A DNA stretch of 63,025 bases from a virus (Duplodnaviria; Heunggongvirae; Uroviricota; Caudoviricetes): the IMG/VR virus record IMGVR_UViG_3300031413_000001. One strand, 5' to 3'. Below, one piece after another: positions 5,840 to 61,542 of the stretch. The translations under genes were made by a program, and so were the position numbers. Each line of letters opens with the position of its first letter. The stretch's first letter is position 1. The notes beneath the pieces are model-generated. The model worked only from the letters and a program-made list of their open reading frames with translations. It was not told the origin of the DNA and made no database searches.

Positions 5840-6466
5840 ATGGCACTGGTTCCAATGGTCGTAGAGCAGACCGCTCGTGGTGAGCGCAGCTACGACATCT
5901 ACTCCCGCTTGCTCAAGGAGCGCGTGGTGTTCCTCAACGCGGAAGTGGAGGACCATATGGCGCAGCTGGTTTGCGCGCAGCTTCTCTTCCTGGAAGCCGA
6001 CGACCCCGACAAGGACATCTGGCTCTACATCAACTCGCCGGGTGGTGCGGTGACCGCTGGTCTGGCAATCTACGACACGATGCGCTTTATCAAGCCCGAC
6101 GTCTGCACCCTCGTGATGGGCCAGGCAGCATCCATGGGCAGTTTCCTCGCGCAGGCAGGGGCCAAGGGAAAGCGTTACGTTCTGCCCGAGTCGCGGACCA
6201 TGATCCATCGCGTATCGTCGGGAACGCCGGGAACGCGCGGCAGCGTTCACGTGCAGGACCTTCAGATGGAAGACGTCAAGCGGTCGTTTGAAGAGAGCCT
6301 TCGCATCAACAAGCGCCTGACGGAACTCTATGTTCGCCACAACACGGCAAAGAAGACCTACGATGAGCTCTTCGAGAACATGAAGTTCGACACGTTTCTG
6401 TCCTCGGAAGAGGCAGTCAAGTACGGTCTGGCTGATCGCGTGATTGAGACTCGCGCAGACGTTTGA
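5840..6466 (+). CDS. clpP: Clp protease proteolytic subunit
   Basis: [23 protein letters not shown] (catalytic Ser), MIH. Confidence 0.95.
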
Positions 6467-12865: not shown

Positions 12866-12938
12866 GCTTCCATAGCTCAGTTGGTAGAGCAGGGGCCTCT
12901 AAAGCCTTGGGTCGGGAGTTCGAGCCTCCCTGGAAGCG
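12866..12938 (+). tRNA. amber suppressor tRNA (anticodon CUA)
   Basis: Acceptor GCTTCCA/TGGAAGC, D arm GCTC/GAGC, anticodon loop CT-CTA-AA, T loop TTCGAGC, G73; CCA not encoded. Confidence 0.9.
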
Positions 12939-28851: not shown

Positions 28852-31800
28852 TTAGTTCATCTTCCTCTGAAGAGAACCATCAACGACCTCGCCACCTGGA
28901 ATCTGGATCACAGTTCCATCATTGCTGATTGTGAGACTTGCCATCGTATTACTGTCAATCTTCGCACCAGTTAGATGCCACTCGCTTCCGCGCTGCTCCA
29001 TGCCGGTGTAAGTTAGGCGAACGTTACCAATCCAAACCACGCCTGGAACATTGTAGTTGTCAAGAGGGATGATGTTCCAGCTCTTACCATTTCCAAGATC
29101 CACGAAGTCGGTGGAAACATCAACTTGAATGGTGCCGTTCCAGTTGGCCTTTTCACTTCCCTTGGTCTGGTTTACCACAGTTCCAATTGCACGCTTGCTG
29201 GGGTCATTGACGTTCACGATTGCAACACGAACGTTATTGCCCATCAGACCAGCGGGAAGACCATCCAGTTCATTGCTGTTCCTCAGCTTGAACGTCTTGG
29301 CTCCCTGGGTCGTCATATCAACCTGCGAGCTGCTACGGAAGCCCTTGCTGATTGCCACATCCCTCATGAAGCCCGTAGAAGGCCGCTGTGGGTTGTGAAG
29401 TGGGGTGTAGCCCTTGTTATCCTCTTGAGCCAACTGGCCTTGGATGACTAGTTCCCGCGCACTCTGATCGTATGATACGAAGTTAAGTGTGCCACGAGTC
29501 ACTGAGCTGTCCTGCCAGATACCCTTGGTGTCCATAAAGGACTTTTGGATCAGGTTGCCACTGCGGGTAACGTTGACGATAATGCTCTCTGCGCCCTTGA
29601 TGTAAACCAACTCGCGAGGACGATCGCCATTGATTCCGGGCTGGGCAAACACGTTGCCATCAACACGGATACCCGCGGGATCAGCATCATCAGCTGGAGT
29701 GGAGTTGCCGTCCAGGCGATCATAGTCATCACCTGCGCGTGCCCTGACTTCATTGGTCCAGAGGCTGCTATCCCACTCAAACACATCCCATGCACCATCG
29801 AGGAACGGGCTGCTGACAATCGTGCCATCGAATCCACATCCCTCAATCAAGTTGGGATCGTCGGTGCGTGCCATGCCAGGAAGTGGACGATAAGCCTCAA
29901 GGCGAGAAGCGGTTCCCATGTCGGGATCCTGATTCCAACCAATGGACTGGAACTCAACCCAATCAGCACCAGACCACATGAAGTTCTTCTTCAGTGCGAT
30001 AACGACCACAATGGAGCCTGGACGATCAGGAGCAACAATTCCCTTACGTACCAGATAGTTGCGCTCCTCGATGGTCTCAACTGCCTGATCCTGATAGTAG
30101 TTGGCCGAACCATTGGTGGCTCCTGCTCGATACTTGGCAGTCAACTGGCTTAGAGTCTGAAGCTGGCCACCACGCTGATCATAGACAACCAGCGATGGAT
30201 CCCAGGGGTTCACATCCCATCCACGAAGACTTCCACAGCTAACGCGATCATACTTGATCGTGGTCTTCAGCTTTCGAACGCCATTCCAATCCTTGTCCCA
30301 GTCGGCCACATCCTTGGCGTCCTTCTGGTAATTGGTGATCCAATCCTTCCAAGGACGATTCAGCGACATGATCTGAGTGTCAGCTGGGTTGTTGACGTCT
30401 AGGACGCGGTTTGCTGCACCATCAGGATACACAGGCTTGTCAAAGTCCGTGATCGCAAGGTCAGCAACATCGGGACCATAGCTTAGGCGACGAACGTATT
30501 CGCGAATCTTCACGTGGTAGGGCTTGACGTCCTCCAAGTATGCGATAACGTTGTCAATCTGGTCCTTGAATGCCACTGGGCTCTGACGAAGCGTTTCCGA
30601 GTAACCACCCAAGTAGAGGAATGATGTCTTAAACGCCCAGTCGATAACCATGCTCTGACGGAATGCACTCTTGACCATGCTGAAGAAGATCTTGTTCCTC
30701 TGAAGCGTGTCCAGAAGAATGGTCCTCATTGTGTTGAGCATGAACTCAATCTCACGACTACCATCACGATAGTTGATCATGTCTGCAAGGACCTGGATCC
30801 TATCAGGAGTCAAGCGCGCTTCCGGAGAGGTGTCCAATAGTGCTGAGACCTGCTCAGGACCAAACTCACGACGTGCGTTGTCGTAGAATGCGTCACTTAG
30901 CTTCATCGTGCTGTTGTGCTTGGCAACCTGATACTTGGTTGTGTTGGTGTACACATCCCAGGTCCAGCGACTATCAGTGTCAACATGGTCAATCTGAACC
31001 AACGTTCCCTTTAGAAGCGTTACGTCCAGGTTACCAGCAGCATCACGTGCCGCAGTGGTTGCAAAGCGATAGTTGGGGAAGTTCTTGGCCGACCAGTTGT
31101 CATCATACCAGTCAACGAGGTTCCACAATTCACCTTCCTGCATACGCCACTTCTGCGTGTCCTCAAGGATAAACTGACGAGCACCATTGATCTCAACCAT
31201 CTTCCAGAGGGTCCAGAAACCACTAGCTGCCTCAGTTGCTGGGATGAACACGCACTCATTTACTTGCACCAAGTTACGCGATGCTGGAATCAGTGCCTTC
31301 AACTCATCAAGATCCAACGCGGTCGTCACATAACGATCGCTGGTTGGTGGTGTCTCACCAGTCTCAAAGACCTCACGCCAGTTGTACCACTGATCGATGA
31401 ATGGCTGGGCAGCCAACACGTTGTTCATGATATCAACAAATGCCTCGCGTGCTTCGCGATGTGGACGCTGGCCACCATTGGGGCTTGGCTGCGCGGGGAA
31501 CCAGCTCTGACGAGGACGAACCAGCGAACCAACCTGCTGGGCACGCGGCAAACGTGCATCAGGAACTGGCTTCTTGGTTGCATCCCAGCCCACCAAGCTG
31601 TCGCGCATCTTGCTCCACAGACTGTCGTGGATTGTATTGCGCTCATCTTCCTCACGAAGGATGATCCACTGCTTGTGATGATTGTTGTGGATCTCTGCGT
31701 CGATGTTCCACTTTACCTTCAGGACAGTGTCGGTTTCATTCAGGAACTGCTTGATGCCGCCGACGATTACCTGGTTCTTGCCAATAACTGCGAAGAATGG

Positions 31801-34800
31801 AATGTCGTTGGCACTGGGGTTACCAATGATGTTTGAGACCTGCTGAGCACTCAGCTTTCGACCTGGGCGAAGTGGTGTAATCGATGGGTTGCGGACCCAG
31901 AAGTAATAGGCCAGTTCATCGGCCTGTGCTTCATCGTTCCACTCCTCGGATACCACATAGGGCACGACCAGAGGATCACGAATCTCACCGCTGGGCTTTC
32001 CATCAATCTTGAGGTTTGCCTTACTGGCCACGAAATCGTTCCAACCGCTGGGCAACACAGGGCTACGAACCCACTCATAGACATCAATGGAGATGCCTGG
32101 AGCGACTCGACCCCAATTCTTCCAGCGGTAGTTGATACCATGACCCATGTTGTCCTCAATCTCATAATCGAGGTAACGTGTGGTGCTCTGATCCCACCAA
32201 AGCTGGCCAACCTGCTCCTTGCCCCAAACATACTGAGTGTCGGAGTAGTTTGCTGGATCGACGATCATCTTGAACTCAAGCTCACGATCAGCCACACCAG
32301 GAATGTATCCCTTGGCAGGATCGTAAAGCTGAAGAACCATCTTCTGCTTGTTTTCCTTGGTGTTGAAGATTGCCGCGCTGGTCAGGAGATCGCTGTTTAC
32401 CTTTCGGTTCTGGCGACGAAGCTCAGTGAAGCCACCATTGACCATCTTGTATGTGGACCACAATCCTGCTTCCTCACCCGAGTCAACTTCCACAATGTCG
32501 CCATTGTTCCAAGTGTTGCCAATGGCTGGAATGGATGCCCTTGTGGGGTAGCGGGTCTTGATCCAAGTGTGGATGTCTGCAGTTGCTCCGGTTTCACCAA
32601 TGCCCACAGGAGTCACGCCGTTGGCATCATCAATCTGAACCAACTCACAACCACGAATGTAATAGTACTCAACCTCGATTACCAGACGGCCCTTGATACC
32701 CGTGCTGGACAGGTTTGCCATCATGTTGCGTGCCGGCGATACCACTGCGGTATTGAAGGGGAACATCGAGTAACCGCTTTCCTTGCTGAACGTGTAGGTT
32801 CGCTGGCGCGTTAGATCAACAACGTTGATTCCTGCGCTCTGGGTCCTCACGAACTTCAAATACTGGCGATCAGTCTCAGCACCATTGGTGCGAATGATCA
32901 GAGTTCCCTCCGAACCAGCTGGTTCGCCCTCGGTCATCAGCGGAAGCTGAATGTTCCTCAGATAGTTGGCATTGTCGGGAAGCGTGGGATCATAGTCGCT
33001 GGGGCGAGGGAATGTAACGTTCTGAACCAAACGGAACTGATCCCTAGCCCTGACCCACTCATACTCAACCGTTGTCTCACCGCAGACATTCAAGTTCTTA
33101 CCCACGCGAATCAAGTCAACGTCGGCAACATCTGCGCTTCCTGGAATGTAGGAAACTGCTGGTGTCTGGATCAACACCGTGTCATTGGGATAGTTGGTTG
33201 GATAGATGGGACGGACTTCTTCCTCACGAACAGCCACAAAGTAGTTGGGGTCATTCTCATGACCAATCTCCAACACGGAGCCCTCTTCAAAAGCATCCAG
33301 GACTGTTACCTTGATGCTCTTGATCAGCTGGTATGCTTCTGGCATAAAGCCCATCAGGAACACGTTGGGGTTGCTCATTGCATCAATAGTCTGGATCACA
33401 CGACCATGGAACTTGGGCGTGTAGGTCTGACGAGCCTGCAGGTTGTTTCCAAGCAGGTTCTTCATGATCAGCTTTTCACCACTGATTGGGTAACCAGTGA
33501 TGCTGGAAAGCAAGCCACTCTTGATGTTCTGACTCAAGTAGAAGTCGTCGGGATTTCCCACACCATCCGCAAAGCCATTAACTGTCTGATCAAGCTGCAC
33601 GACTGCGCCCTGATCCGCATAGGTTCCAGGGAAGATGTTGAGCATGTTGAAGCCAGTGTCATGGAACTTGTAGGTCTTCCAAGCATTGAAGTTTGGCGAA
33701 CCATCAGGGTTCTTTGCACCCATTCCATAAATCCAAGCACGATCACCTGCATTGATGGGTTCCTGTGCGTCCAGCTGGTCTCCGTAGAGGTTTCCAAATG
33801 CCACATCATCATGAACTGCAAAGCGTACTTCATCCAAGTTCACGAAGCCGGCGGTTGGCAGATCATCAGGACCATATTCCTTGACAGGCCAGGTGATCTT
33901 GTTCATGTCTGGGCGCCAGGTCCAACGCTCATCAAAACCATCTAGGACACCATCGACCGTGAAGTCGGTTACCTTGATGACACCATAGGTGTTGCTGGTC
34001 GTCGTTCCATGCGGTGCTTGTTCAAAGCTGATCAACTGTGGGTTGTGCTTGAACTCGCTCTGGCGGATCTGAATGTCCAGCGAGGGGCTGACTTCCTGAC
34101 CACCATAGGAACCTGCACGGAATGCCCACTCCTCAAACAACTTCAAGCCCTTGTTGTGGCGTACAAAGTTGCTGCGAAGGAGACGACGCATCGCCGTTGG
34201 GCTGCCCTTTTGCTGGATCATGCCCTGATAGAACTCAAACTGGTTTGTTGGTGTCAGGAGTAGATTGTTGAGGTATTCCTTTTCCTCATAACCAAAGTTC
34301 GCACGAGCACGGTCCTGGAGAACCTTGTTCTCCATGGATTCAGTTTCAAAGAACCTCCTGAAGTCATCGGCAGCGCGTTCAAAGTTTGGCGTCAGTGTGT
34401 CGCCGGTAACGATGAAGCCTGGAGCGTCGATGCGACCCTTCCAACCCACAGTCTTAAAGCCCTGAACACGCAACCTTGGCTGCTTGATGTTGAGGAGTGG
34501 ACTGTAGATGGTGTCACCAAAGATCGTCTGGTTGTTGAAGACCAAAACGTGCTCTAGTTCACTGATGTAGAGGCGGAGACCAAAGATACCACCACTCACG
34601 CTGTCGCAGGATACCGACAGGTTGCCATCATTGCGGATGACTCGTGTCTTCTGATTGTCAATGGGCTGGCCATTCTGATCCACAACCGCATAGAGGCCGT
34701 TGACAATCTGCTCAATGGGCTGGATTGTTCCCGTGTCACTCTTGAACTGAACCAGCTTGCTGCTGGGGCTCAACGCAATGTAGTCGCCTGCTTCCCTCTG

Positions 34801-37800
34801 GGCATTGTTGCTCCACAGGATAAAGTTCTTCAGGGAGTTCTGCCAATCACGAATCTCTTGGTCGCCATCAACGTTGGTAAACAACCAACCACGGCTTTCC
34901 AAGTAGCGCTCATAGCCGTTCATAAAGTCAGCGACGTCCTGAGGAGTCTTCAAGACCGTTCCATAGGGAACCTTGACCACTGGTGCTTCAAACTCGCCTT
35001 CGAGTGCCCACGAAAGACTGGTTCCATCGGCATACTGAGGGCGGGCAACCTGCAACCAAAACTCTGGCTCAAAGTAGCTTGAGCTGGTGTGAGTCTTCAG
35101 CGAGCGATAGAAGTTATCGCCTTCCTTGACTGTTAGGTTGACGCTGTAATAGGTGCTGGGCCTCCAGCTGGGAACGCTGGCAGCCGCTGCGCCACTACCC
35201 ACGCTGGTCTTGGGACCAAACTGGTTTCCGTTGATGATGGAAAAGTAGGGATTCAGTGCGTCATAGCCCTGGATCTGATAACCACGACCTGTCCACTCAA
35301 TAGCCAGACCGCTGTATGTTTCCTCACGGACACTTGGCGACCTGTAGAGCGTTACCGTGACGTCCTCGCTGGGAATACGACCAAATGCGTCGGAGACCGT
35401 AACGAGTGTGGTAGCGTCGGTGAATCCTGCAACCTTGTAGCTGAGCTGAGTTCCCAGACCACGAACCTTGACCGCAAGGTTTTCGTTGATCGAGGAGTTC
35501 TTGCTGGACAACAGATCAGAGATCCACTGCTGAATTCCAACCTTGGTTACTAGACTCAAGTCCTCGAGGACCTCACCATGAACCTGCAATTCTGCGTGAC
35601 GGCTACGACCCTTGGTGTCCTGATTTAGAAGCTGCTCGCTCTTGGTTCCCTTGAAGAACAAGCCCAGGTCCTGGGTGTTCCAACCCATTTCCACAAAAGC
35701 TGCTGGCTTCATCAGGTAAGCAGAAGTTGCTGCCGCGAAAGCATACGCGGACGAACGCCTCCAGCTCTGTTCAACAGGACCCAGGTCTCCCCAATCCCAG
35801 TCGGCCCTACGGTCGCTGATTGTGGGAACACTCTGTAGGATTCCGCAGCCTAGAACTGGCTCGTTGACAACCTTCCACTTGCTTTCATCAAACTCTGCTT
35901 CCGACTTGTGGTTTTCCAGTGCCTGGATCCAAACAACGGGGAGATTGGGAAGTGCCAACTGAACGGTCTGACGTGCAATGAACGAAGTATCGGCGGTCCA
36001 GAAGCCATAGAACGTGGAAGTGTCGTACTCGAACTCGCTGCACTTTTCTTCATTGATTACACCATCGGTGGTCAACATGCTGGGATAGTTGCCATCGCCT
36101 GCAAGGTTTCTGGGACCAGGATGACGAAGACGACCACGAGGATCCACAGGAATATGCTGGGTAACGCCTGGACGTGCCCATTCCTTGTTGATTCCCTGAC
36201 GATCACCATCGTCGATGTATCCGGCTTCAATGTCCTCCCAGAGAACCAAGTTCTCGCTGGTGTAAGGTGCGCTGCCATAGCGAGCATCCCACCAGCTGGG
36301 CTTACGAGCAAATCCCAAGCATTCCCAAGGAGTTAGATCAGGGCGCTGAGTTCCGTAGAACTTCTGATAGATTCCGCGCCAGTGACCGGGAACACCCTGG
36401 CTGCTCCAGTTCCAAGTCCAAGGATCATGCAGATCGACCTGATCATTTTCCTTGTAATCCAGACGGAATGTGACTGCCCAGCGCTCAAAGGATGGACGCA
36501 GGATCTGAAGCCACTCATCATGGCTGTAATCGTTGACACGATACTGATCACCATGCGTTGCATCAAAGTCCACAACAGGACGTTCACGATCACGAACAGT
36601 TGCTGGAATGCTGTTGAAGATTCTCTCTTCAAGCGCCAAGCAAACGGCCGCTGTGGTGCCATCTTCAATCTGAGAGATGGAGCCATCGTGTCCACGAAGG
36701 AACCAAACAGTCGTCCTGCCACCGGTGGTCTGAACTTCCTCAGACATCAGTGCTGGCTGGAAGATTGGATACACACCAAGATAGCTGGGCGTTGCAGGAA
36801 TGAACGTTGGAAGCTGATTTCCCTCATCCTTTGCCATACCGCTGAGGTAAAATGCAAAGTGCTTGGTCTTGCCCTTGTTGAGCTCGTCCAGTGCGGTGTT
36901 GATCCACACATTGTAGGGAGTGGATGCTGTCAAACGACCACTCGTCACATAGCTGAGAACCTTCTGCTGGAACTTGTCCTTGAAGCGACTGTACTCACTC
37001 TCACTGTAGCGGATAGCCGCTGTGATATCCAGCTGGCTCTGACTTGCCAACAACATGGTCTTGAGCAAACCAGCTGAGTGCTGGATGATATGCGTGCCAA
37101 GTGTGGTGTCACGGGCAGTGTCACGGTAATTGTTGTCCGCGTACTCCGCACCAGTGAAGCCGGGCTGCTTCTTGATGATCTCACTGAAGTGATCATAGAA
37201 GTCGCCCTTGGTTACCTGCGAGATCGCATCGTTGTCTGGGTTGGCCTGAAGATTCAGAGGAACCTCATAGTGACCAGTCGCATCCTGTGGAGGATTGCGG
37301 TCACTGTAGGTCTTGATCTCAATGATGTCACCGCGCTTGATGTCGATGATCATGATGTCGCGGTTGACGCGAATGAAGTCACGATCCTCAACCAGCGTGA
37401 TGCGTTCAAAGCTCTTGCTGGAGTTCACGCGACCAACGATTACGTTGATCTCCTGTGCATCCTGGCTGACCTTGAACAGCTTGGTACGACCATCACTCAC
37501 ATAGCGGTCAACCATGAACTGACGAGTCTGGCCAGCGGCCTTATACCAGTCGTTGCTTAGGTGACCATCTTCACTGTGAAAATAAAAGCCATTGATTGGA
37601 AGAGGCTTACCACCAACCACATACTCATAGGAGTTGGTGTGGAGGTAGTTCTCAAAGAGGATCTGACCCTTGTTGTCATGAAGTAGTGGGATGCCAAGAA
37701 TCTTGTCAGCTACTCGCGTGCCCGTGTTATCCAGCTTGTAACTGAACAGCTTGCTTCCGTTGAAGTTGCTGTTGGGGTACAGGAATGGATCACGAAGGCT

Positions 37801-39984
37801 GGAACCGTTGAGGTCATAGAGCTCAAACAGCGGAGCCTGGTTGGCACGAAGCTTGGACTGACTTTGTGCCCAGTTGCTGCCGTCCCAGTGGAAATTCTTT
37901 CCTTGATAGCTTCCCAGTCGAATACGAACAACTTCTCCGTACTCGGGCAGGCCGCTGGGGTTCTGACCATCGGTCTCAAGGATCAACTTCAGGACGTTGC
38001 CCTGGTTTACGAGAACGAACACATTGTTGTTGAGCAGAGGGTTGACTGTGTTGCGGATCAGCAAGCGAATGCTCTCCACGTCACCATAGACCACACCGGT
38101 ATCTGGGTTCACTGCATCAACAGTGATCAGATTGGAGCCCAGCGTTCTGATGCGAACTCCACCAAGTGTGACATCCTGCGGCCACTGATTCAGGTAGCCG
38201 TTGACATCCTCAATGTTGTCAACCAAGACATCAACGTCTAGGCGACGAGTCAGACCATAGTTGAACATCTCTACATCGCGATTGAACTCAACGATTGGAC
38301 GAGTTGCGCGATGAGCCTGTACAAAGTCGGGATCCAAGTTGGGAGACAAGGTGGACACGTGGAACCAACGGTTGCCAGTTGACCACTCATTACGGTTCTT
38401 GGAACCACGCTCGATGACCATGTAGTCGGGAGTTGCTGATCCCTTGAGATTTTCCTCAAGGAGAAACAAGCTGCGACCCACATTTTCCACAATCCAAACG
38501 TTGCCATTTGTGTAGTCGGTGTTCTTGTCCAGCTTTACCGTGATCCTCATGCCACTGCTCAGCTTGACTCCACCGAACGCACGAGGATCGGGAGTTGCCT
38601 GACCAACGGCGTTGTTTTCCAAGTCGCTGTAAACGGAGATCTGAACATCCGCATCTGCTGCTGGGCGCTGATTGAATGTGATCGTGGTAGCGCCAGGAGT
38701 ATAAGTGAAGGGACGGCTCACGCCATCAACCAACGCTGTGATCAAATCCTGATTTAGCAAGCTGAGGTCGTAGAACTTCTTGAGCTCAGGATCCGAAGTG
38801 CCATAACCGGGAAGGTTCCACACCGAGGTCGTGCCATCGCTTACCTGCGTGTGACTGGGACCATAGACGAGGATAGTTGTGGTGTCGCTTCGGCTCTGGA
38901 AGACTCGAACGTTATCTAGACCAAGACCCTCGTTCGTCGTGGGCTCATCTGCTACCAGACCAAAGCCCAGCTTGAGTGTCTTACCAGTTCCAGTCAGGCT
39001 GATCGAGAAGTTGTAGACACGATCATAGTAATTGCTGGGCTGATTGGTCTGTGGCGTGTTGGGAACAACATGATCACCATCGAGGTCACTGTCAACACCC
39101 GGCGAGGTGATGTTGTAGGTTCCCTTGATATCACCAAGATCAAAGCTACCATTTCCAAGGCTGCTACCACCAAGACCACTGATGCCCACTGGTGTAAAGT
39201 TGAAAGCCAGCTGGTCATTGATCCAAACGGAGCAATGCTCATCACCGTAAGCGGCTGGCGGTTGAACGCCACCAACACCAGCGACAGTATCCCAGGAGTT
39301 CAACTTGAGCATGTCCAGCTGAATGTCAGTGGTTGTTGAGCTGCCATTGAGTGTGAAGGTCTTGCTTACCTGCTGCTGATCGGTGGGCAGTCCACCAAGA
39401 GTTCCCAGATACTTGCTGAGACCCTTGTAGGGACCCTCGGTGTTGGCCGGTGAACCATCAGCCAGCGTCCAGCCATTGGGACCATCATCAAACGTGCTCG
39501 TTGGTTCCACGTCATCAACTGGAAGCCAGACATACTGGCGGAAGTTGACCATCTTGTCCAGGTCGATGGGCGGGCACCAAGTGTAATAGTCCTGCGAGAA
39601 CAGTCGGTTGTGGTTTTCAGTCAGGGCTCCCTGAAAGCGCAACTGATTGATCAGGTCGCTGTAAGGGAGAAGATCCGTTAGATCACCCTCAGCGGAACGG
39701 CTGACCATGCCAGCTTCCAGCTGATAGAAGGTACGATCGCTCGTGCCCTCTTCCAAGTAATAGTCCTGATCGGGATCATACCAAAGCGGCTTCTGACCCA
39801 CATAACCATTGATTGCTCGACCCTTGCCTGGATCAAAGAGATGATCGGCACTGGCGCCAAAGAACTTTGTAAGAGTCTCAGTCTGGTGAACACCAGGAAG
39901 CTGCTTGATTACACGACGCTTTTCGTGACTGTCCTGATCGAGAACAATGGGAGTAAATGCAAAAGGATTGTTGTTTTTGGCCAT
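28852..39984 (-). CDS. giant (3710 aa) baseplate/virion structural protein
   Basis: Uninterrupted ORF after the gp6-like gene; VKPYH motif. Confidence 0.75.
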   Translation of the reverse strand: MAKNNNPFAFTPIVLDQDSHEKRRVIKQLPGVHQTETLTKFFGASADHLFDPGKGRAINGYVGQKPLWYDPDQDYYLEEGTSDRTFYQLEAGMVSRSAEGDLTDLLPYSDLINQLRFQGALTENHNRLFSQDYYTWCPPIDLDKMVNFRQYVWLPVDDVEPTSTFDDGPNGWTLADGSPANTEGPYKGLSKYLGTLGGLPTDQQQVSKTFTLNGSSTTTDIQLDMLKLNSWDTVAGVGGVQPPAAYGDEHCSVWINDQLAFNFTPVGISGLGGSSLGNGSFDLGDIKGTYNITSPGVDSDLDGDHVVPNTPQTNQPSNYYDRVYNFSISLTGTGKTLKLGFGLVADEPTTNEGLGLDNVRVFQSRSDTTTILVYGPSHTQVSDGTTSVWNLPGYGTSDPELKKFYDLSLLNQDLITALVDGVSRPFTYTPGATTITFNQRPAADADVQISVYSDLENNAVGQATPDPRAFGGVKLSSGMRITVKLDKNTDYTNGNVWIVENVGRSLFLLEENLKGSATPDYMVIERGSKNRNEWSTGNRWFHVSTLSPNLDPDFVQAHRATRPIVEFNRDVEMFNYGLTRRLDVDVLVDNIEDVNGYLNQWPQDVTLGGVRIRTLGSNLITVDAVNPDTGVVYGDVESIRLLIRNTVNPLLNNNVFVLVNQGNVLKLILETDGQNPSGLPEYGEVVRIRLGSYQGKNFHWDGSNWAQSQSKLRANQAPLFELYDLNGSSLRDPFLYPNSNFNGSKLFSYKLDNTGTRVADKILGIPLLHDNKGQILFENYLHTNSYEYVVGGKPLPINGFYFHSEDGHLSNDWYKAAGQTRQFMVDRYVSDGRTKLFKVSQDAQEINVIVGRVNSSKSFERITLVEDRDFIRVNRDIMIIDIKRGDIIEIKTYSDRNPPQDATGHYEVPLNLQANPDNDAISQVTKGDFYDHFSEIIKKQPGFTGAEYADNNYRDTARDTTLGTHIIQHSAGLLKTMLLASQSQLDITAAIRYSESEYSRFKDKFQQKVLSYVTSGRLTASTPYNVWINTALDELNKGKTKHFAFYLSGMAKDEGNQLPTFIPATPSYLGVYPIFQPALMSEEVQTTGGRTTVWFLRGHDGSISQIEDGTTAAVCLALEERIFNSIPATVRDRERPVVDFDATHGDQYRVNDYSHDEWLQILRPSFERWAVTFRLDYKENDQVDLHDPWTWNWSSQGVPGHWRGIYQKFYGTQRPDLTPWECLGFARKPSWWDARYGSAPYTSENLVLWEDIEAGYIDDGDRQGINKEWARPGVTQHIPVDPRGRLRHPGPRNLAGDGNYPSMLTTDGVINEEKCSEFEYDTSTFYGFWTADTSFIARQTVQLALPNLPVVWIQALENHKSEAEFDESKWKVVNEPVLGCGILQSVPTISDRRADWDWGDLGPVEQSWRRSSAYAFAAATSAYLMKPAAFVEMGWNTQDLGLFFKGTKSEQLLNQDTKGRSRHAELQVHGEVLEDLSLVTKVGIQQWISDLLSSKNSSINENLAVKVRGLGTQLSYKVAGFTDATTLVTVSDAFGRIPSEDVTVTLYRSPSVREETYSGLAIEWTGRGYQIQGYDALNPYFSIINGNQFGPKTSVGSGAAAASVPSWRPSTYYSVNLTVKEGDNFYRSLKTHTSSSYFEPEFWLQVARPQYADGTSLSWALEGEFEAPVVKVPYGTVLKTPQDVADFMNGYERYLESRGWLFTNVDGDQEIRDWQNSLKNFILWSNNAQREAGDYIALSPSSKLVQFKSDTGTIQPIEQIVNGLYAVVDQNGQPIDNQKTRVIRNDGNLSVSCDSVSGGIFGLRLYISELEHVLVFNNQTIFGDTIYSPLLNIKQPRLRVQGFKTVGWKGRIDAPGFIVTGDTLTPNFERAADDFRRFFETESMENKVLQDRARANFGYEEKEYLNNLLLTPTNQFEFYQGMIQQKGSPTAMRRLLRSNFVRHNKGLKLFEEWAFRAGSYGGQEVSPSLDIQIRQSEFKHNPQLISFEQAPHGTTTSNTYGVIKVTDFTVDGVLDGFDERWTWRPDMNKITWPVKEYGPDDLPTAGFVNLDEVRFAVHDDVAFGNLYGDQLDAQEPINAGDRAWIYGMGAKNPDGSPNFNAWKTYKFHDTGFNMLNIFPGTYADQGAVVQLDQTVNGFADGVGNPDDFYLSQNIKSGLLSSITGYPISGEKLIMKNLLGNNLQARQTYTPKFHGRVIQTIDAMSNPNVFLMGFMPEAYQLIKSIKVTVLDAFEEGSVLEIGHENDPNYFVAVREEEVRPIYPTNYPNDTVLIQTPAVSYIPGSADVADVDLIRVGKNLNVCGETTVEYEWVRARDQFRLVQNVTFPRPSDYDPTLPDNANYLRNIQLPLMTEGEPAGSEGTLIIRTNGAETDRQYLKFVRTQSAGINVVDLTRQRTYTFSKESGYSMFPFNTAVVSPARNMMANLSSTGIKGRLVIEVEYYYIRGCELVQIDDANGVTPVGIGETGATADIHTWIKTRYPTRASIPAIGNTWNNGDIVEVDSGEEAGLWSTYKMVNGGFTELRRQNRKVNSDLLTSAAIFNTKENKQKMVLQLYDPAKGYIPGVADRELEFKMIVDPANYSDTQYVWGKEQVGQLWWDQSTTRYLDYEIEDNMGHGINYRWKNWGRVAPGISIDVYEWVRSPVLPSGWNDFVASKANLKIDGKPSGEIRDPLVVPYVVSEEWNDEAQADELAYYFWVRNPSITPLRPGRKLSAQQVSNIIGNPSANDIPFFAVIGKNQVIVGGIKQFLNETDTVLKVKWNIDAEIHNNHHKQWIILREEDERNTIHDSLWSKMRDSLVGWDATKKPVPDARLPRAQQVGSLVRPRQSWFPAQPSPNGGQRPHREAREAFVDIMNNVLAAQPFIDQWYNWREVFETGETPPTSDRYVTTALDLDELKALIPASRNLVQVNECVFIPATEAASGFWTLWKMVEINGARQFILEDTQKWRMQEGELWNLVDWYDDNWSAKNFPNYRFATTAARDAAGNLDVTLLKGTLVQIDHVDTDSRWTWDVYTNTTKYQVAKHNSTMKLSDAFYDNARREFGPEQVSALLDTSPEARLTPDRIQVLADMINYRDGSREIEFMLNTMRTILLDTLQRNKIFFSMVKSAFRQSMVIDWAFKTSFLYLGGYSETLRQSPVAFKDQIDNVIAYLEDVKPYHVKIREYVRRLSYGPDVADLAITDFDKPVYPDGAANRVLDVNNPADTQIMSLNRPWKDWITNYQKDAKDVADWDKDWNGVRKLKTTIKYDRVSCGSLRGWDVNPWDPSLVVYDQRGGQLQTLSQLTAKYRAGATNGSANYYQDQAVETIEERNYLVRKGIVAPDRPGSIVVVIALKKNFMWSGADWVEFQSIGWNQDPDMGTASRLEAYRPLPGMARTDDPNLIEGCGFDGTIVSSPFLDGAWDVFEWDSSLWTNEVRARAGDDYDRLDGNSTPADDADPAGIRVDGNVFAQPGINGDRPRELVYIKGAESIIVNVTRSGNLIQKSFMDTKGIWQDSSVTRGTLNFVSYDQSARELVIQGQLAQEDNKGYTPLHNPQRPSTGFMRDVAISKGFRSSSQVDMTTQGAKTFKLRNSNELDGLPAGLMGNNVRVAIVNVNDPSKRAIGTVVNQTKGSEKANWNGTIQVDVSTDFVDLGNGKSWNIIPLDNYNVPGVVWIGNVRLTYTGMEQRGSEWHLTGAKIDSNTMASLTISNDGTVIQIPGGEVVDGSLQRKMN

Positions 39985-58729: not shown

Positions 58730-59272
58730 TCAATTTTCAGCACCGCCGAGTTTCCTCACTGCGGCCTTGTTCTGGGTAAAGAACTTCTCATGCGTTACGA
58801 TGATGTAATCACAAGCCTTCTCGGTGTTGAAAGCCTTGCGATACGTCACGTAGCTGAGTCCCGTCATATCAAACTTGTCCAGGTTTTCTGCCTTGAATGC
58901 AGCCCAGCTTCCCTTGCGGGTGATCTTGAAGATCGTAACCGAAAAGTCCGTGGGATCAGCTGGTTCCTCAGTCTGATCAATCCACGTGTCCAGCTGCTTA
59001 CAGCCTCCGTCAATGATCTGATGGAACGCGATGTCCGCGTAGTTCTTGGCTTCCAAGTTCAAGTGTGGAAGATCGTCAGGTGGGATGATGTCGCCCTTGG
59101 CTGCCCTCATCTGAATGTCGCTCATCGTGGCCTTGCGGAACACGTTCTTGCCACCCATGTAGGCACCGCTGTTGGGAACCCTCTGGAAGTTTCCGCCCAG
59201 CGTGGCACCGAGGAAAACGCAGATCTCGCGCTCCCAGCTGTTGCCCTTTTGCTTTGCCTTTGAGGTCATCAT
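58730..59272 (-). CDS. Holliday junction resolvase-like PD-(D/E)XK nuclease
   Basis: KQKGNSWERE, GDI, LEAK. Confidence 0.75.
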   Translation of the reverse strand: MMTSKAKQKGNSWEREICVFLGATLGGNFQRVPNSGAYMGGKNVFRKATMSDIQMRAAKGDIIPPDDLPHLNLEAKNYADIAFHQIIDGGCKQLDTWIDQTEEPADPTDFSVTIFKITRKGSWAAFKAENLDKFDMTGLSYVTYRKAFNTEKACDYIIVTHEKFFTQNKAAVRKLGGAEN

Positions 59273-59323
59273 ACTCTCCTGTTCTAGTCTGATATTTAGT
59301 GACAGAGCGCGGTGTGATGTCGC

Positions 59324-60181
59324 ATGTTCCATGTAGAGCATAGGAGCAAGTTTGTGGATAAGAAAGTTCGTGATCTGACCGTAATGGTGGATATTCCTGT
59401 AACGGATCAGATGCGCTACAAGGAGTTCATGAAACAGGAACTCCACTATTACAATTCAATGATCGAGGTCCTCAGCCCAAGGGCACGGACTTTTCCGGAG
59501 ACCATCTTGGCAATCCACAAGGATTGGGAAAATCTCTGGAACGCACTGGCCTTTGGTGGCCATGATGTCAAGCTCTATGAAAAGTTCGCCGACGATGCAG
59601 CTCTTCCGGTGGATTTGGAGCCCCATAGAAAGATGCTGTTGGGACGGGACAGCAAGGGTGTTCGCTTTCTAAACGAGCGTATGCTGAACATCCTAGGGGT
59701 AGCGGGAACCAAGAGTCTCATCCACCCCACGGTTCGAAAGAACATGGCAAGTCAGATGCTGGAGTTCTACAAGGACCAGGCAGCCAAGCTGATCAACCGA
59801 AACGATGAAGCTTTTGGTGACGAGGACCTTTACAGCAATCCTGTTGAGCTCCTGGTAAAGCATGATCTGGTAACCAAGCGCCACTTACAGATTCCCCGCA
59901 ACATCCTGAACGCTGTCTACTATTACAAGGAGCGGGACTTCTCGGAAGTCTACACGCCCTACAGCGAGCGACCCATCGTCGTCCCCGGACAGGATCTGGA
60001 AAACAACAATCACTGGAACTTTATCATGCTGCACCAGCAGCCTGGCATCGAGGCCATCAACACCACTCCCTGGGTTGTTGACATCAAGTACACTCAGGTG
60101 CCATACTTGATCAAGTACCAGGATGTTGAGCAGCCCAAGACTGGTCGCATCTTCGCCACGATGAAGAAGCGCGCTTACTAA
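59324..60181 (+). CDS. hypothetical protein with weak resemblance to the TnpB N-terminal half
   Basis: Long ORF; start may be GTG 59354; fold assignment is speculative. Confidence 0.65.
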   Translation: MFHVEHRSKFVDKKVRDLTVMVDIPVTDQMRYKEFMKQELHYYNSMIEVLSPRARTFPETILAIHKDWENLWNALAFGGHDVKLYEKFADDAALPVDLEPHRKMLLGRDSKGVRFLNERMLNILGVAGTKSLIHPTVRKNMASQMLEFYKDQAAKLINRNDEAFGDEDLYSNPVELLVKHDLVTKRHLQIPRNILNAVYYYKERDFSEVYTPYSERPIVVPGQDLENNNHWNFIMLHQQPGIEAINTTPWVVDIKYTQVPYLIKYQDVEQPKTGRIFATMKKRAY

Positions 60182-60271
60182 AATGGGGGACCTAGGTCCC
60201 CCAAGATCGATCTCAGATGTAGCTGAATCGAAACGCGATCCGCGTTTTTAACCGTGTGCATAAATAGAAAA

Positions 60272-60820
60272 ATGCACACAGATCCTACTTTATAGCCCCT
60301 ACCTAGCTCACCGGCACAAAACATAAAAACTAATGAGTCCGGGACGGATAAAGATCCCAACCCGGACCATACATAGCTAGAAATCCTAGATTATAGAGAA
60401 ACCTGGCCCGGACGATTGACGGGATGGTAGCTGCTAGGGGCGAACTGGGTCCACCATTAGGTGGTATAGCGGAGACGCTTGCGACACACCAGTATAAACA
60501 AAGGCTACGGAGAAAACGTAGCTGGTGATCCGAGAAGCAACTTTTGGGTGCAAACAAGACTTTCCCCTCAAGCTCTGGTTCTTCGTAGGAAGCGAGGGTA
60601 AACCCATGACTGGGAACCTCGCAAGCGACCCATGCTACTTGAAAGGTGTGGATCACGCTACCGCCATATTTCAGAGTTCCTAACTGCAAAGCCGACCGGA
60701 TGACCCCGGCGCTGATGTAATGTCAGTGTTAGTTTCAAGATCTTGCGACAACCTCCAACTGCAAGTTTTTACTCCCTCTTCATAGACCTTTTTATTTGGG
60801 TCTGTGTGGGGGGAGTAAAG
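60272..60820 (+). ncRNA. large structured ncRNA candidate
   Basis: TAAATA at 60261, many nested stems and GNRA loops, no credible ORF. Confidence 0.6.
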
Positions 60821-61161
60821 ATCATCTGCTTCCTACCTACTGCAAGCTCAACAATCACTCGCTTGCTCGTTCTTTCTAATTTCTGCCTTTTATTAGTTCT
60901 GGACATCAAAGCTACTTTTCAAAGAATCACTGAATTCAAAGCCAAAGTCAGACAGATTCCACTAGGATTCGTGAACATTCAGAAACATTGGATCCAAGGG
61001 ATCTGAACATCTGATTCCAAGATATTCCGAACAATCAATTGTAATGATCAGCAACCAGAACCATGACTCTCATTCAGAGTCCTCCTGGAGTTCCATTTGA
61101 CTGAATTCCGCGGATTGCTTTCTGTAGGTTAGTTAAATACAGCTATTAAAGGAGATGGTGC

Positions 61162-61542
61162 ATGGAGATTTATTTTGATGGCGGATGTGCACCAAACCCA
61201 GGTGCGATGAGTTCCTGTATTGTAATCTGCCGCCCAGGGCAAAAGGCCCAAGCCTTTACTATGAAAGACCTGGGCCAGGGAACCAACAATGTAGCGGAGT
61301 GGTCAGCCCTCGTCTGGGCTGCTCTTTGGGCCAAAGACAATGGCGTTCAAAAGGCCACTATCTACGGCGACAGTCTCCTCGTTATCAATCAGGCCAGTGG
61401 AGCCTGGAAGATCAATAACCAGTTGCTTGCCAACTTGTTCAAACAGTTCAAGGAGGTCTCGAATGGACTTGATCTTGAGCTTTGCCATGTTTACCGGGAT
61501 TCCAATCTTGCTGGTATCTATTTGGAGCACGGAACTCTTTAG
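61162..61542 (+). CDS. rnhA: ribonuclease HI
   Basis: YFDGG, TNNVAEW, GDS.LVINQ, HVYRDSN; ends in TAG. Confidence 0.85.
   Translation: MEIYFDGGCAPNPGAMSSCIVICRPGQKAQAFTMKDLGQGTNNVAEWSALVWAALWAKDNGVQKATIYGDSLLVINQASGAWKINNQLLANLFKQFKEVSNGLDLELCHVYRDSNLAGIYLEHGTL

Follow-up and report, generated by a model that had tools for sequence, protein, structure and literature searches.

The omega RNAs, or right-end element RNAs (reRNAs), of the transposon-encoded nuclease TnpB, from which CRISPR-Cas12 descends, lie at or beyond the 3′ end of the tnpB gene (PMC10097598). TldR proteins and sigma-associated dCas12f and TnpB proteins, some of which are found in phages, do not cut nucleic acid and have kept an adjacent guide RNA (bioRxiv 10.1101/2023.11.30.569447; PMC13472631; PMC10691335). 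Among large phage-associated RNAs, EGFOA (RF02955) has been described as a putative small RNA from places where genes are absent over unusually long stretches; in vitro it assembles into trimers and strand-swapped dimers (bioRxiv 10.64898/2026.07.01.735769). Here we describe a large structured RNA whose conserved fold spans ∼60184-60880 of the IMG/VR virus record IMGVR_UViG_3300031413_000001, the whole 63,025 nt of which is referred to as the window. The window encodes SbcC/SbcD-type gp46 and gp47 proteins, a gp26-type baseplate hub and RNase HI (Pfam and PHROG matches), the contigs most closely related to it, from IMG/VR, ENA and Logan, measure 160-480 kb, and the window is, as judged from its genes, part of a T4-like jumbo phage. 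The RNA directly follows a 285-amino-acid gene whose product is modelled as the recognition half of a TnpB or Cas12f protein, and we propose, giving the idea an even chance, that it is the RNA subunit of that protein, or the descendant of an omega RNA or reRNA.

The gene-free gap reported in an earlier note on this DNA (60182-61161, 980 nt) is borne out by the calls of the flanking genes, the 285-amino-acid open reading frame (ORF) that ends at 60181 and the RNase HI ORF that starts at 61162, both on the plus strand. No coding gene was detected in the gap on either strand, as there is no conserved reading frame with codon-position bias and no Pfam or PHROG match. An antisense ORF at 60330-60689 differs in frame and extent among relatives, and its variable columns are distributed 49, 53 and 59 over the three codon positions (120 columns each). 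The interval 60261-60820, which the note had assigned to an ornate non-coding RNA, folds on the plus strand with an energy of −187.2 kcal/mol (z = −4.89), compared with z = −2.74 for the minus strand. Relatives were gathered in three ways, through the upstream protein, an invariant 27-nt box and a word specific to the RNA body, and showed the RNA to be conserved among jumbo-phage contigs of IMG/VR, JGI, ENA and Logan; public phage records gave no DNA match to the gap.

Eight distinct sequences with the same RNA body as the window (type A, defined below) were aligned; they share the RNA of the window at 64-84% identity, apart from two near-identical pairs. RNAalifold predicted 156 pairs from these sequences, 44 with compensatory changes. 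In a nested model of 151 pairs, which is the consensus fold without a dubious terminal helix, standard pairs occupy 94.7% of the cells and both sides have changed in 45 pairs. This compares with 23.9±3.0 in column shuffles, none of 500 reaching the observed value, and with only 4-10 compensatory pairs in controls in which the partners were slid by one to three columns; the covariation score is 0.293 against 0.149. Across the alignment GU or UG fills 119 cells and AC or CA only 16, and the RNA is therefore read from the plus strand, as the note had argued from its G-U pairs. The structured RNA on the plus strand is real, and it represents a well-supported new family even if it is unrelated to the upstream protein.

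Comparison with known families supports the note's description of an undescribed large phage RNA, the strong covariation and the conservation in jumbo-phage contigs being accompanied by the absence of an Rfam family. Searched against Rfam 15, the window gives a single match at gathering score, a tRNA gene (12866-12938, 65.9 bits), while 60100-61250 at E≤10 returns only chance hairpin matches to microRNA and frameshift models, far below their thresholds. There is no match in type A to ROOL, GOLLD, HEARO, OLE, RNase P, tmRNA, group I or II introns or small ribozymes, in agreement with the note, which had recognized no hallmarks of RNase P, tmRNA or group I/II introns. Its two suggestions for the nature of the RNA fare less well: membership of the ROOL/GOLLD kind fails, the resemblance being one of size and ornateness only, and a ribozyme gains no support.

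Seven local stems hold, and those named by the note are all confirmed, most of them with covariation. Among the eight relatives the GCCCC/GGGGC stem (60295-98 with 60438-41) displays one compensatory change, the GTCCGGG/CCCGGAC stem (60337-67) four compensatory pairs and a further three in its inner helix, the CCACC-AUUA-GGUGG hairpin (60452-63) and the AGCG-GAGA-CGCU stem (60464-82) two each, the GCUACG/CGUAGC stem (60499-527) four and the G-U-rich hairpin (60770-60817) seven. By contrast, both of the proposed long-range pairings were rejected on the alignment (L024, L007 and L003). In each, one strand (GTGATCC at 60525, GGTAGC at 60426) is invariant and its proposed partner (GGATCAC at 60650, GCTACC at 60657) varies without compensation, and the bases belong to other, covarying helices. 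A better long-range candidate, on the evidence of the alignment, is the putative pseudoknot CUUGAAA/UUUCAAG, which displays two compensatory pairs, in L003 and L028 and hence in one lineage, and is an alternative to a 3-bp helix in the nested model. Two further pairings were not adopted. The terminal pairing proposed by RNAalifold, of AGAUCGA in the 5′ box with UCGUUC at ∼60872, was dropped as both sides are invariant with a U-U mismatch and the box folds into a separate hairpin, which carries a compensatory change in L043; UUUAUA at 60289 with UAUAAA at 60493 is invariant and broken in L003.

The core of the interval given by the note stands, although its limits do not: covarying hairpins begin at 60184 and 60208 and conservation extends to ∼60880, so that the conserved fold spans ∼680 nt. 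Its elements are listed in Table 1. The order of the hairpins HP0, HP1, HP2 and HP3 and the conserved CUACUUUAUAGC that follows them is identical in the 19 relatives folded. HP1 is the most conserved element, and its outer stem carries the compensatory change in L043 mentioned above. In Domain 2 the loop GGAGAAAAC of the hairpin 60499-60527 is near-invariant and the single-stranded CGACACACCAGUAUAAACAAAG is invariant across type A, the invariant single-stranded stretches of the alignment reaching 22 nt. The linker of Domain 1 (60308-60332) and its counterpart in type B are both single-stranded over ∼20-25 nt, A/C-rich and nearly free of G, the composition being kept while the sequence varies. 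The word CYWACUGCAA(A)G occurs three times in the window (60680-60690, 60755-60765 and 60836-60846) at distances of 72-82 nt and is conserved in type A relatives; the copies could be a repeated protein-binding or tertiary-contact motif.

Table 1. Elements of the RNA locus and related loci; positions refer to the window unless a contig is named.
Feature	Contig	Position	Strand	Remarks
285-amino-acid gene, proposed protein partner of the RNA		59324-60181	+	Modelled WED+REC lobe of TnpB/Cas12f, no RuvC domain
HP0, GC-rich hairpin right after the stop codon		60184-60203	+	Sequence differs, hairpin present in 19/19 relatives folded
HP1, box hairpin, stem CGAU-UCAG, loop AUGUAG invariant		60204-60230	+	Invariant in type A; once per contig in IMG/VR
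HP2, hairpin of variable sequence, pairing kept		60231-60248	+	Same hairpin in every relative folded
HP3, stem GUGUGCA/UGCACAC enclosing TAAATA (60261-60266)		60254-60279	+	Covaries across both types
Domain 1, conserved CUACUUUAUAGCCCC then multi-helix junction		60285-60441	+	Closed by 60295-98/60438-41 and 60303-07/60433-37
Domain 1, A/C-rich variable linker		60308-60332	+	
Domain 1, CCGGG hairpin		60333-60370	+	
Domain 1, further hairpins		60377-89, 60397-432	+	
Domain 2		60444-60583	+	Helices 9-15, 11 compensatory pairs
Domain 2, three-way element with AUUA-loop hairpin		60444-60493	+	
Domain 2, hairpin and long hairpin		60499-60527, 60532-60583	+	
Domain 3, closed by GUAGGA/UCCUAC (60585-90 with 60831-36)		60585-60836	+	Helices 16-26, 22 compensatory pairs
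Domain 3, hairpins		60592-622, 60624-659, 60741-766	+	
Domain 3, three-way element		60674-736	+	
Domain 3, long G-U-rich hairpin		60770-60817	+	
Candidate pseudoknot, loop CUUGAAA 60638-44 with UUUCAAG 60733-39		60638-60739	+	7 bp, perfect in 8/8
3′ tail, third CYWACUGCAAG copy and CACUCGCUUGCUCGUUC motif		60837-60880	+	Alignable conservation ends
Poorly conserved spacer with RNase H late promoter (TAAATA 61134-39) and Shine-Dalgarno		60881-61161	+	Relatives often with extra ORF
RNase HI gene; right junction of cassette swap		61162-61542	+	Pfam RVT_3 7e-10, RNase_H 1.5e-7; phrog_531; identity to G001 resumes at 61162
Endonuclease VII-like ORF	L001	5701-6138		
Endonuclease VII-like ORF	L003	5621-6082		
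Endonuclease VII-like ORF	L028	4204-4677		
Endonuclease VII-like ORF	L042	4226-4678		
Canonical EGFOA core	L099	9043-9059		
Canonical EGFOA core	L090	750-766		
Canonical EGFOA core	L100			
Canonical EGFOA core	L102			
Canonical EGFOA core	L107			
Canonical EGFOA core	L048	4404-4420		

The hexamer TAAATA is present 17 times in the window, where 7.6 copies would be expected, and several of them precede an ORF start by 11-28 nt on the coding strand (3380, 57806, 61162, 62605 on the minus strand, and 62695), RNase H and hub genes being among the genes so preceded. At the RNA, CATAAATA (60259-60266) corresponds to the TATAAATA-like −10 element that precedes late genes throughout the genome in T4-type phages, and the TAAATA of this 5′ region is kept in every relative irrespective of body type. 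The hexamer is a credible candidate for a late-promoter core of the T4 TATAAATA type. The late promoter that the note placed here is plausible on the strength of motif, enrichment and conservation. TAAATA is located inside the covarying stem-loop HP3, downstream of three further covarying hairpins, and at least some transcripts must therefore start further upstream; they probably arise as read-through of the 285-amino-acid gene, which is allowed by HP0, as this hairpin is not followed by a U-tract on the plus strand.

The 285-amino-acid protein has no family match in Pfam or PHROG. Its AlphaFold2 model, built from 31 homologues (predicted local distance difference test score 83.7, predicted template-modelling score 0.80), displays one strand, a helical bundle (residues 26-157) and six strands (187-255). 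Foldseek returned nothing at E≤0.001, yet its top rows were almost all Cas12 proteins. With VIA-align, in which 160-170 residues were aligned, Z was 9.9 for CnCas12f (169 amino acids), 9.5 for mimivirus Fanzor2 and 9.2 and 8.9 for residues 1-174 of ISDra2 TnpB, and the best 50 matches listed were all Cas12, TnpB, Fanzor or TranC. In the ESM Atlas the two best clusters carry HTH_OrfB_IS605/OrfB_IS605 (PF12323/PF01385). The fold match covers TnpB residues 1-174 and Cas12f residues 1-208, and the phage protein ends there; of the WED, REC, RuvC and zinc-finger/TNB domains of a TnpB or Cas12 effector it has WED and REC only. A profile search of 1.84 billion proteins gave 196 clusters (50% identity), and among the matches listed the members are 96-345 amino acids long, none of them TnpB-length, leaving no room for a RuvC half. 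The model and these matches point to a separate family of RuvC-less WED+REC lobes on metagenomic contigs, some of jumbo-phage size.

Gene and gap are kept together in ∼22 distinct loci, with protein identities of 40-100%. The remote members L087 and L088 also have downstream gene-free gaps, of 750 and 1280 nt (z = −3.2 and −5.35), whose RNAs could not be aligned with type A or B and matched neither the type A and B nhmmer profiles nor Rfam, some common words being visible by eye. P0140 and P0100 led to no viral loci, and a wide protein alignment (A4) proved too diverse to be of use in finding loci.

A different conserved RNA, ∼1.1 kb long and termed type B, occupies this gap in 14 further distinct relatives and is commoner than the type A body of the window. 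The two types share the 5′ module, from HP0 through Domain 1 as far as the CCGGG hairpin, and, by eye, a U-run with a CCC/GGG hairpin and a CTCGCAAGCTCG-like word on the 3′ side; a word resembling the CACTCGCAAGCTCG motif of the 3′ tail is likewise visible in type B. Over 59324-60230 the phage contig G001 (416,714 bp) matches the window at 98% identity, and over 61162-61542 at 95%, with no match between. Its upstream protein is 100% identical to that of the window and its body is type B, the wholly different segments (window 60231-61161, G001:C1 62653-63783) being bounded by sharp junctions, one at the invariant box and the other at the start codon of RNase H. Near-identical flanks without a match between them show that the body was exchanged recently. 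In a search with the body-specific word, the type A body was found at the gap locus only. In type B loci (L005 at ∼5950-6000, L008, L025 and L038) RNase H is preceded by a sigma-70-like TTGAYT-N17-TAWAAT and not by the late motif found in the window, and so the swap likely also changes the timing of RNase H expression.

EGFOA is recognized by a covariance-model (CM) score of at least 37.7 bits, its gathering score, and by the core GUAAAGCUAGACCUNGG, which is closed by a short stem and preceded by CCGUCCUAG. The type A body of the window gives no EGFOA match at E≤10. An EGFOA-like domain is present at the same place in all 12 type B loci scanned, at 29-38 bits, L030 passing the threshold at 38.0 and L005 reaching 37.5. 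Canonical cores with the flanking stem were found in five viral loci, of which L090 and L100 look identical around the core, and in one metagenome-assembled genome, from the Deltaproteobacteria. A pattern search of 185,579 species genomes gave 41 matches; none of the 18 loci scanned with cmscan reaches the gathering score, and those matches are therefore ascribed to chance, while L048, which came from the same search but lies outside the 18, has an EGFOA-like flanking stem. Two of the canonical loci, L099 and L048, lie in gene-free gaps of ∼0.9-1.15 kb, and EGFOA may frequently be one domain within a longer RNA.

The proposed partnership of RNA and protein takes its first place from gene order. 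A giant RNA abuts a TnpB-fold protein gene in the position and orientation of an omega RNA, which is unlikely to be chance: it lies on the same strand, and its covarying hairpins begin 3 nt past the stop codon in every one of the 19 relatives folded. In the mechanism envisaged, the RNA would be made as a 3′ extension of the protein's own mRNA, HP0-HP3 following directly after the stop codon, and late in infection it would additionally be made from the embedded TAAATA promoter. The 5′ module (the AUGUAG box hairpin, HP2, HP3, CUACUUUAUAGC and the CCGGG hairpin) would be the likeliest protein-binding scaffold. The central body would serve as a cargo domain that can be exchanged, being of type A in the window and of the EGFOA-like type B in most relatives. 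The resulting nuclease-less particle may bind or scaffold nucleic acid within the replication and recombination module of the phage (SbcCD, RusA-like/PD-(D/E)XK and RNase HI).

Several observations weigh against this partnership. No guide segment or target was found, matches of at least 13 nt to the gap being absent from the rest of the 63-kb window; the sequence does become variable immediately behind the conserved tail (∼60880), as a 3′ guide of ∼16-20 nt that matches a target beside a transposon-adjacent motif would. The length of the RNA exceeds that of all known omega RNAs and single-guide RNAs (sgRNAs) by a factor of 3-5, and the central body is swapped independently of the protein, as in G001. 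The similarity to TnpB and Cas12 is structural only, as hmmsearch against PDB sequences retrieved no solved member at E≤10. The remote homologue L089 has no RNA gap and, conversely, the contig L024 has the type A RNA without the 285-amino-acid gene upstream; nor are homologues of the protein found near canonical EGFOA where upstream DNA is present. The whole neighbourhood is syntenic in these phages, so that conserved adjacency by itself is weak evidence. There is no sign of an IS200/IS605 or IS607 transposon: each contig, including those of 416-465 kb, has one copy, no transposase is present among the called neighbours, and the position of the RNA is fixed between the same core genes across relatives.

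Some of these points favour the main alternative, a possible but more tentative reading, in which a stand-alone ornate RNA of the ROOL/GOLLD/EGFOA kind is expressed late as a scaffold, cage or decoy, perhaps self-assembling, and its adjacency to the TnpB-lobe gene is simply inherited. The size of the RNA, its many covarying domains and candidate pseudoknot and the late-promoter motif are all in keeping with such a molecule. So are the EGFOA-like domain of the sister body, given the EGFOA trimers and dimers seen in vitro, the occurrence of canonical EGFOA in ∼1-kb gaps without the protein family, the independence of body and protein in the swap, and L024. Set against this, the sole abutting gene being an RNA-binding TnpB lobe in omega-RNA orientation would be an unlikely coincidence, and type A matches none of EGFOA, ROOL and GOLLD.

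The surroundings of the locus bear on its possible function. It lies within a replication and recombination module comprising SbcCD, a RusA-like/PD-(D/E)XK ORF and RNase HI, together with an endonuclease VII-like ORF in relatives. The RusA-like resolvase (phrog_244; PF24608 PDDEXK_15 in relatives) is a minus-strand ORF of 179 amino acids (58730-59269) that diverges from the TnpB-lobe gene, with a TAAATA (59293-59298, minus strand) 24 nt upstream. The RNase HI gene is directly downstream of the RNA in nearly all loci, being absent from L040 and L087. These features recall the ColE1 RNA II and T4 R-loop origins, and the gap RNA might accordingly form a persistent RNA-DNA hybrid that the downstream RNase HI trims into a replication primer. 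At ∼650 nt it is comparable in length to ColE1 RNA II. We regard this pre-primer role as quite unlikely: by T4 precedent an origin would not be expected to fire when a late promoter is active, RNase H is served by a separate promoter and is missing from two loci, a sequence-specific origin is hard to reconcile with two unrelated bodies at one site, and there is no composition or skew signal at the gap. A variant in which the TnpB lobe uses the RNA to open a specific phage-DNA site as an R-loop, the hybrid being trimmed into a primer by RNase HI, is a long shot. If true, it would mean an RNA-programmed start site for replication or recombination, derived from a domesticated transposon nuclease and set within an SbcCD, resolvase and RNase H module.

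A mobile self-splicing or self-cleaving cassette of the group I kind, spreading with the adjacent nuclease ORF of relatives, is very improbable. TnpB elements can carry group I introns (PMC10690162), the recent exchange of bodies between near-identical phages has sharp junctions, and the common 5′ and 3′ modules flank the different bodies like exons. Moreover, in four of the eight type A loci an endonuclease VII-like ORF (His-Me finger, HLDH...HHNL motif, phrog_1035) lies just downstream, between the RNA and RNase H (Table 1). However, 1.15-kb searches of types A and B found no group I, group II or small-ribozyme model at E≤10, and no gene is interrupted, the flanking ORFs being complete and their stop and start codons conserved. 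As noted, the type A body is confined to the gap locus, and the window and L024 lack the nuclease ORF, with no remnant of it at 60800-61200 of the window; in L004 and L007 an unrelated ORF of 162-164 amino acids occupies its position. A resemblance to group I introns noticed by eye in type B (GGGAAAG...AAACCCCAG and R/S-like words) is without CM support; no RF00028 match at E≤10 and no split gene were found, with the reservation that CM searches can miss divergent introns.

That the structure is nothing but a long untranslated region, stabilizing the upstream mRNA from its 3′ end or regulating RNase H or inserted ORFs as a 5′ leader, with no function in trans, accords with its place between two co-oriented genes and with HP0, a stabilizer-like hairpin, but is very improbable for a multi-domain, pseudoknotted, strongly covarying structure of 680-1150 nt, far beyond known phage elements of this kind, with its long invariant single-stranded stretches and with the promoter and ribosome-binding site of RNase H 280 nt beyond the conserved fold. 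Elsewhere in the window, a single minus-strand ORF of 3710 amino acids occupies 28852-39984.

If the pairing of RNA and protein is true, a TnpB-derived system has been cut down to its recognition lobe and remains tied to its RNA, which has grown to 0.7-1.1 kb, and the range of forms known for domesticated RNA-guided nucleases is widened. The orphan EGFOA motif would be placed in a genomic, and possibly also in a protein, context, and the short list of giant phage RNAs would gain a new large structured member with natural variation enough for structure work.

Measured against known systems, the locus resembles each in part. As with ColE1 RNA II and the origin transcripts of T4 R-loops, a folded RNA several hundred nucleotides long is found beside an RNase H function, but the locus differs from them in the late-promoter motif of the RNA and the separate promoter of RNase H. 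ROOL and GOLLD, large ornate RNAs often of phages or prophages, are similar in size class, in their many conserved helices and in phage context; unlike them, the gap RNA matches neither covariance model and has no tRNA neighbourhood, the nearest tRNA being 47 kb away. EGFOA is alike in its large gene-free regions and in the 29-38-bit scores of the type B body at the same locus, but the motif measures ∼108 nt against ∼680 nt for the phage RNA, and type A does not match it. The omega RNAs or reRNAs of IS200/IS605 TnpB and the sgRNAs of Cas12f (ISDra2 TnpB, PDB 8H1J and 8EXA) share with the phage RNA their location, at the 3′ end of a WED+REC gene or beyond it and on the strand of that gene, and a multi-hairpin scaffold beginning at the ORF end. 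They measure ∼130-250 nt, compared with 650-1150 nt here, and in contrast to their effectors the phage protein is without the RuvC or zinc-finger half; the phage locus, moreover, has no identifiable transposon ends, TnpA, transposon-adjacent motif or 3′ guide, and its central body is exchangeable. In TldR and the sigma-associated dCas12f and TnpB proteins a RuvC fold persists in inactivated or shortened form, alongside a short guide RNA whose target has been mapped, whereas the phage locus has a giant RNA and lacks the RuvC half. With these proteins the phage locus nevertheless shares the design of a domesticated, non-cutting TnpB-family protein with an RNA encoded next to it, some of those systems being likewise phage-encoded.

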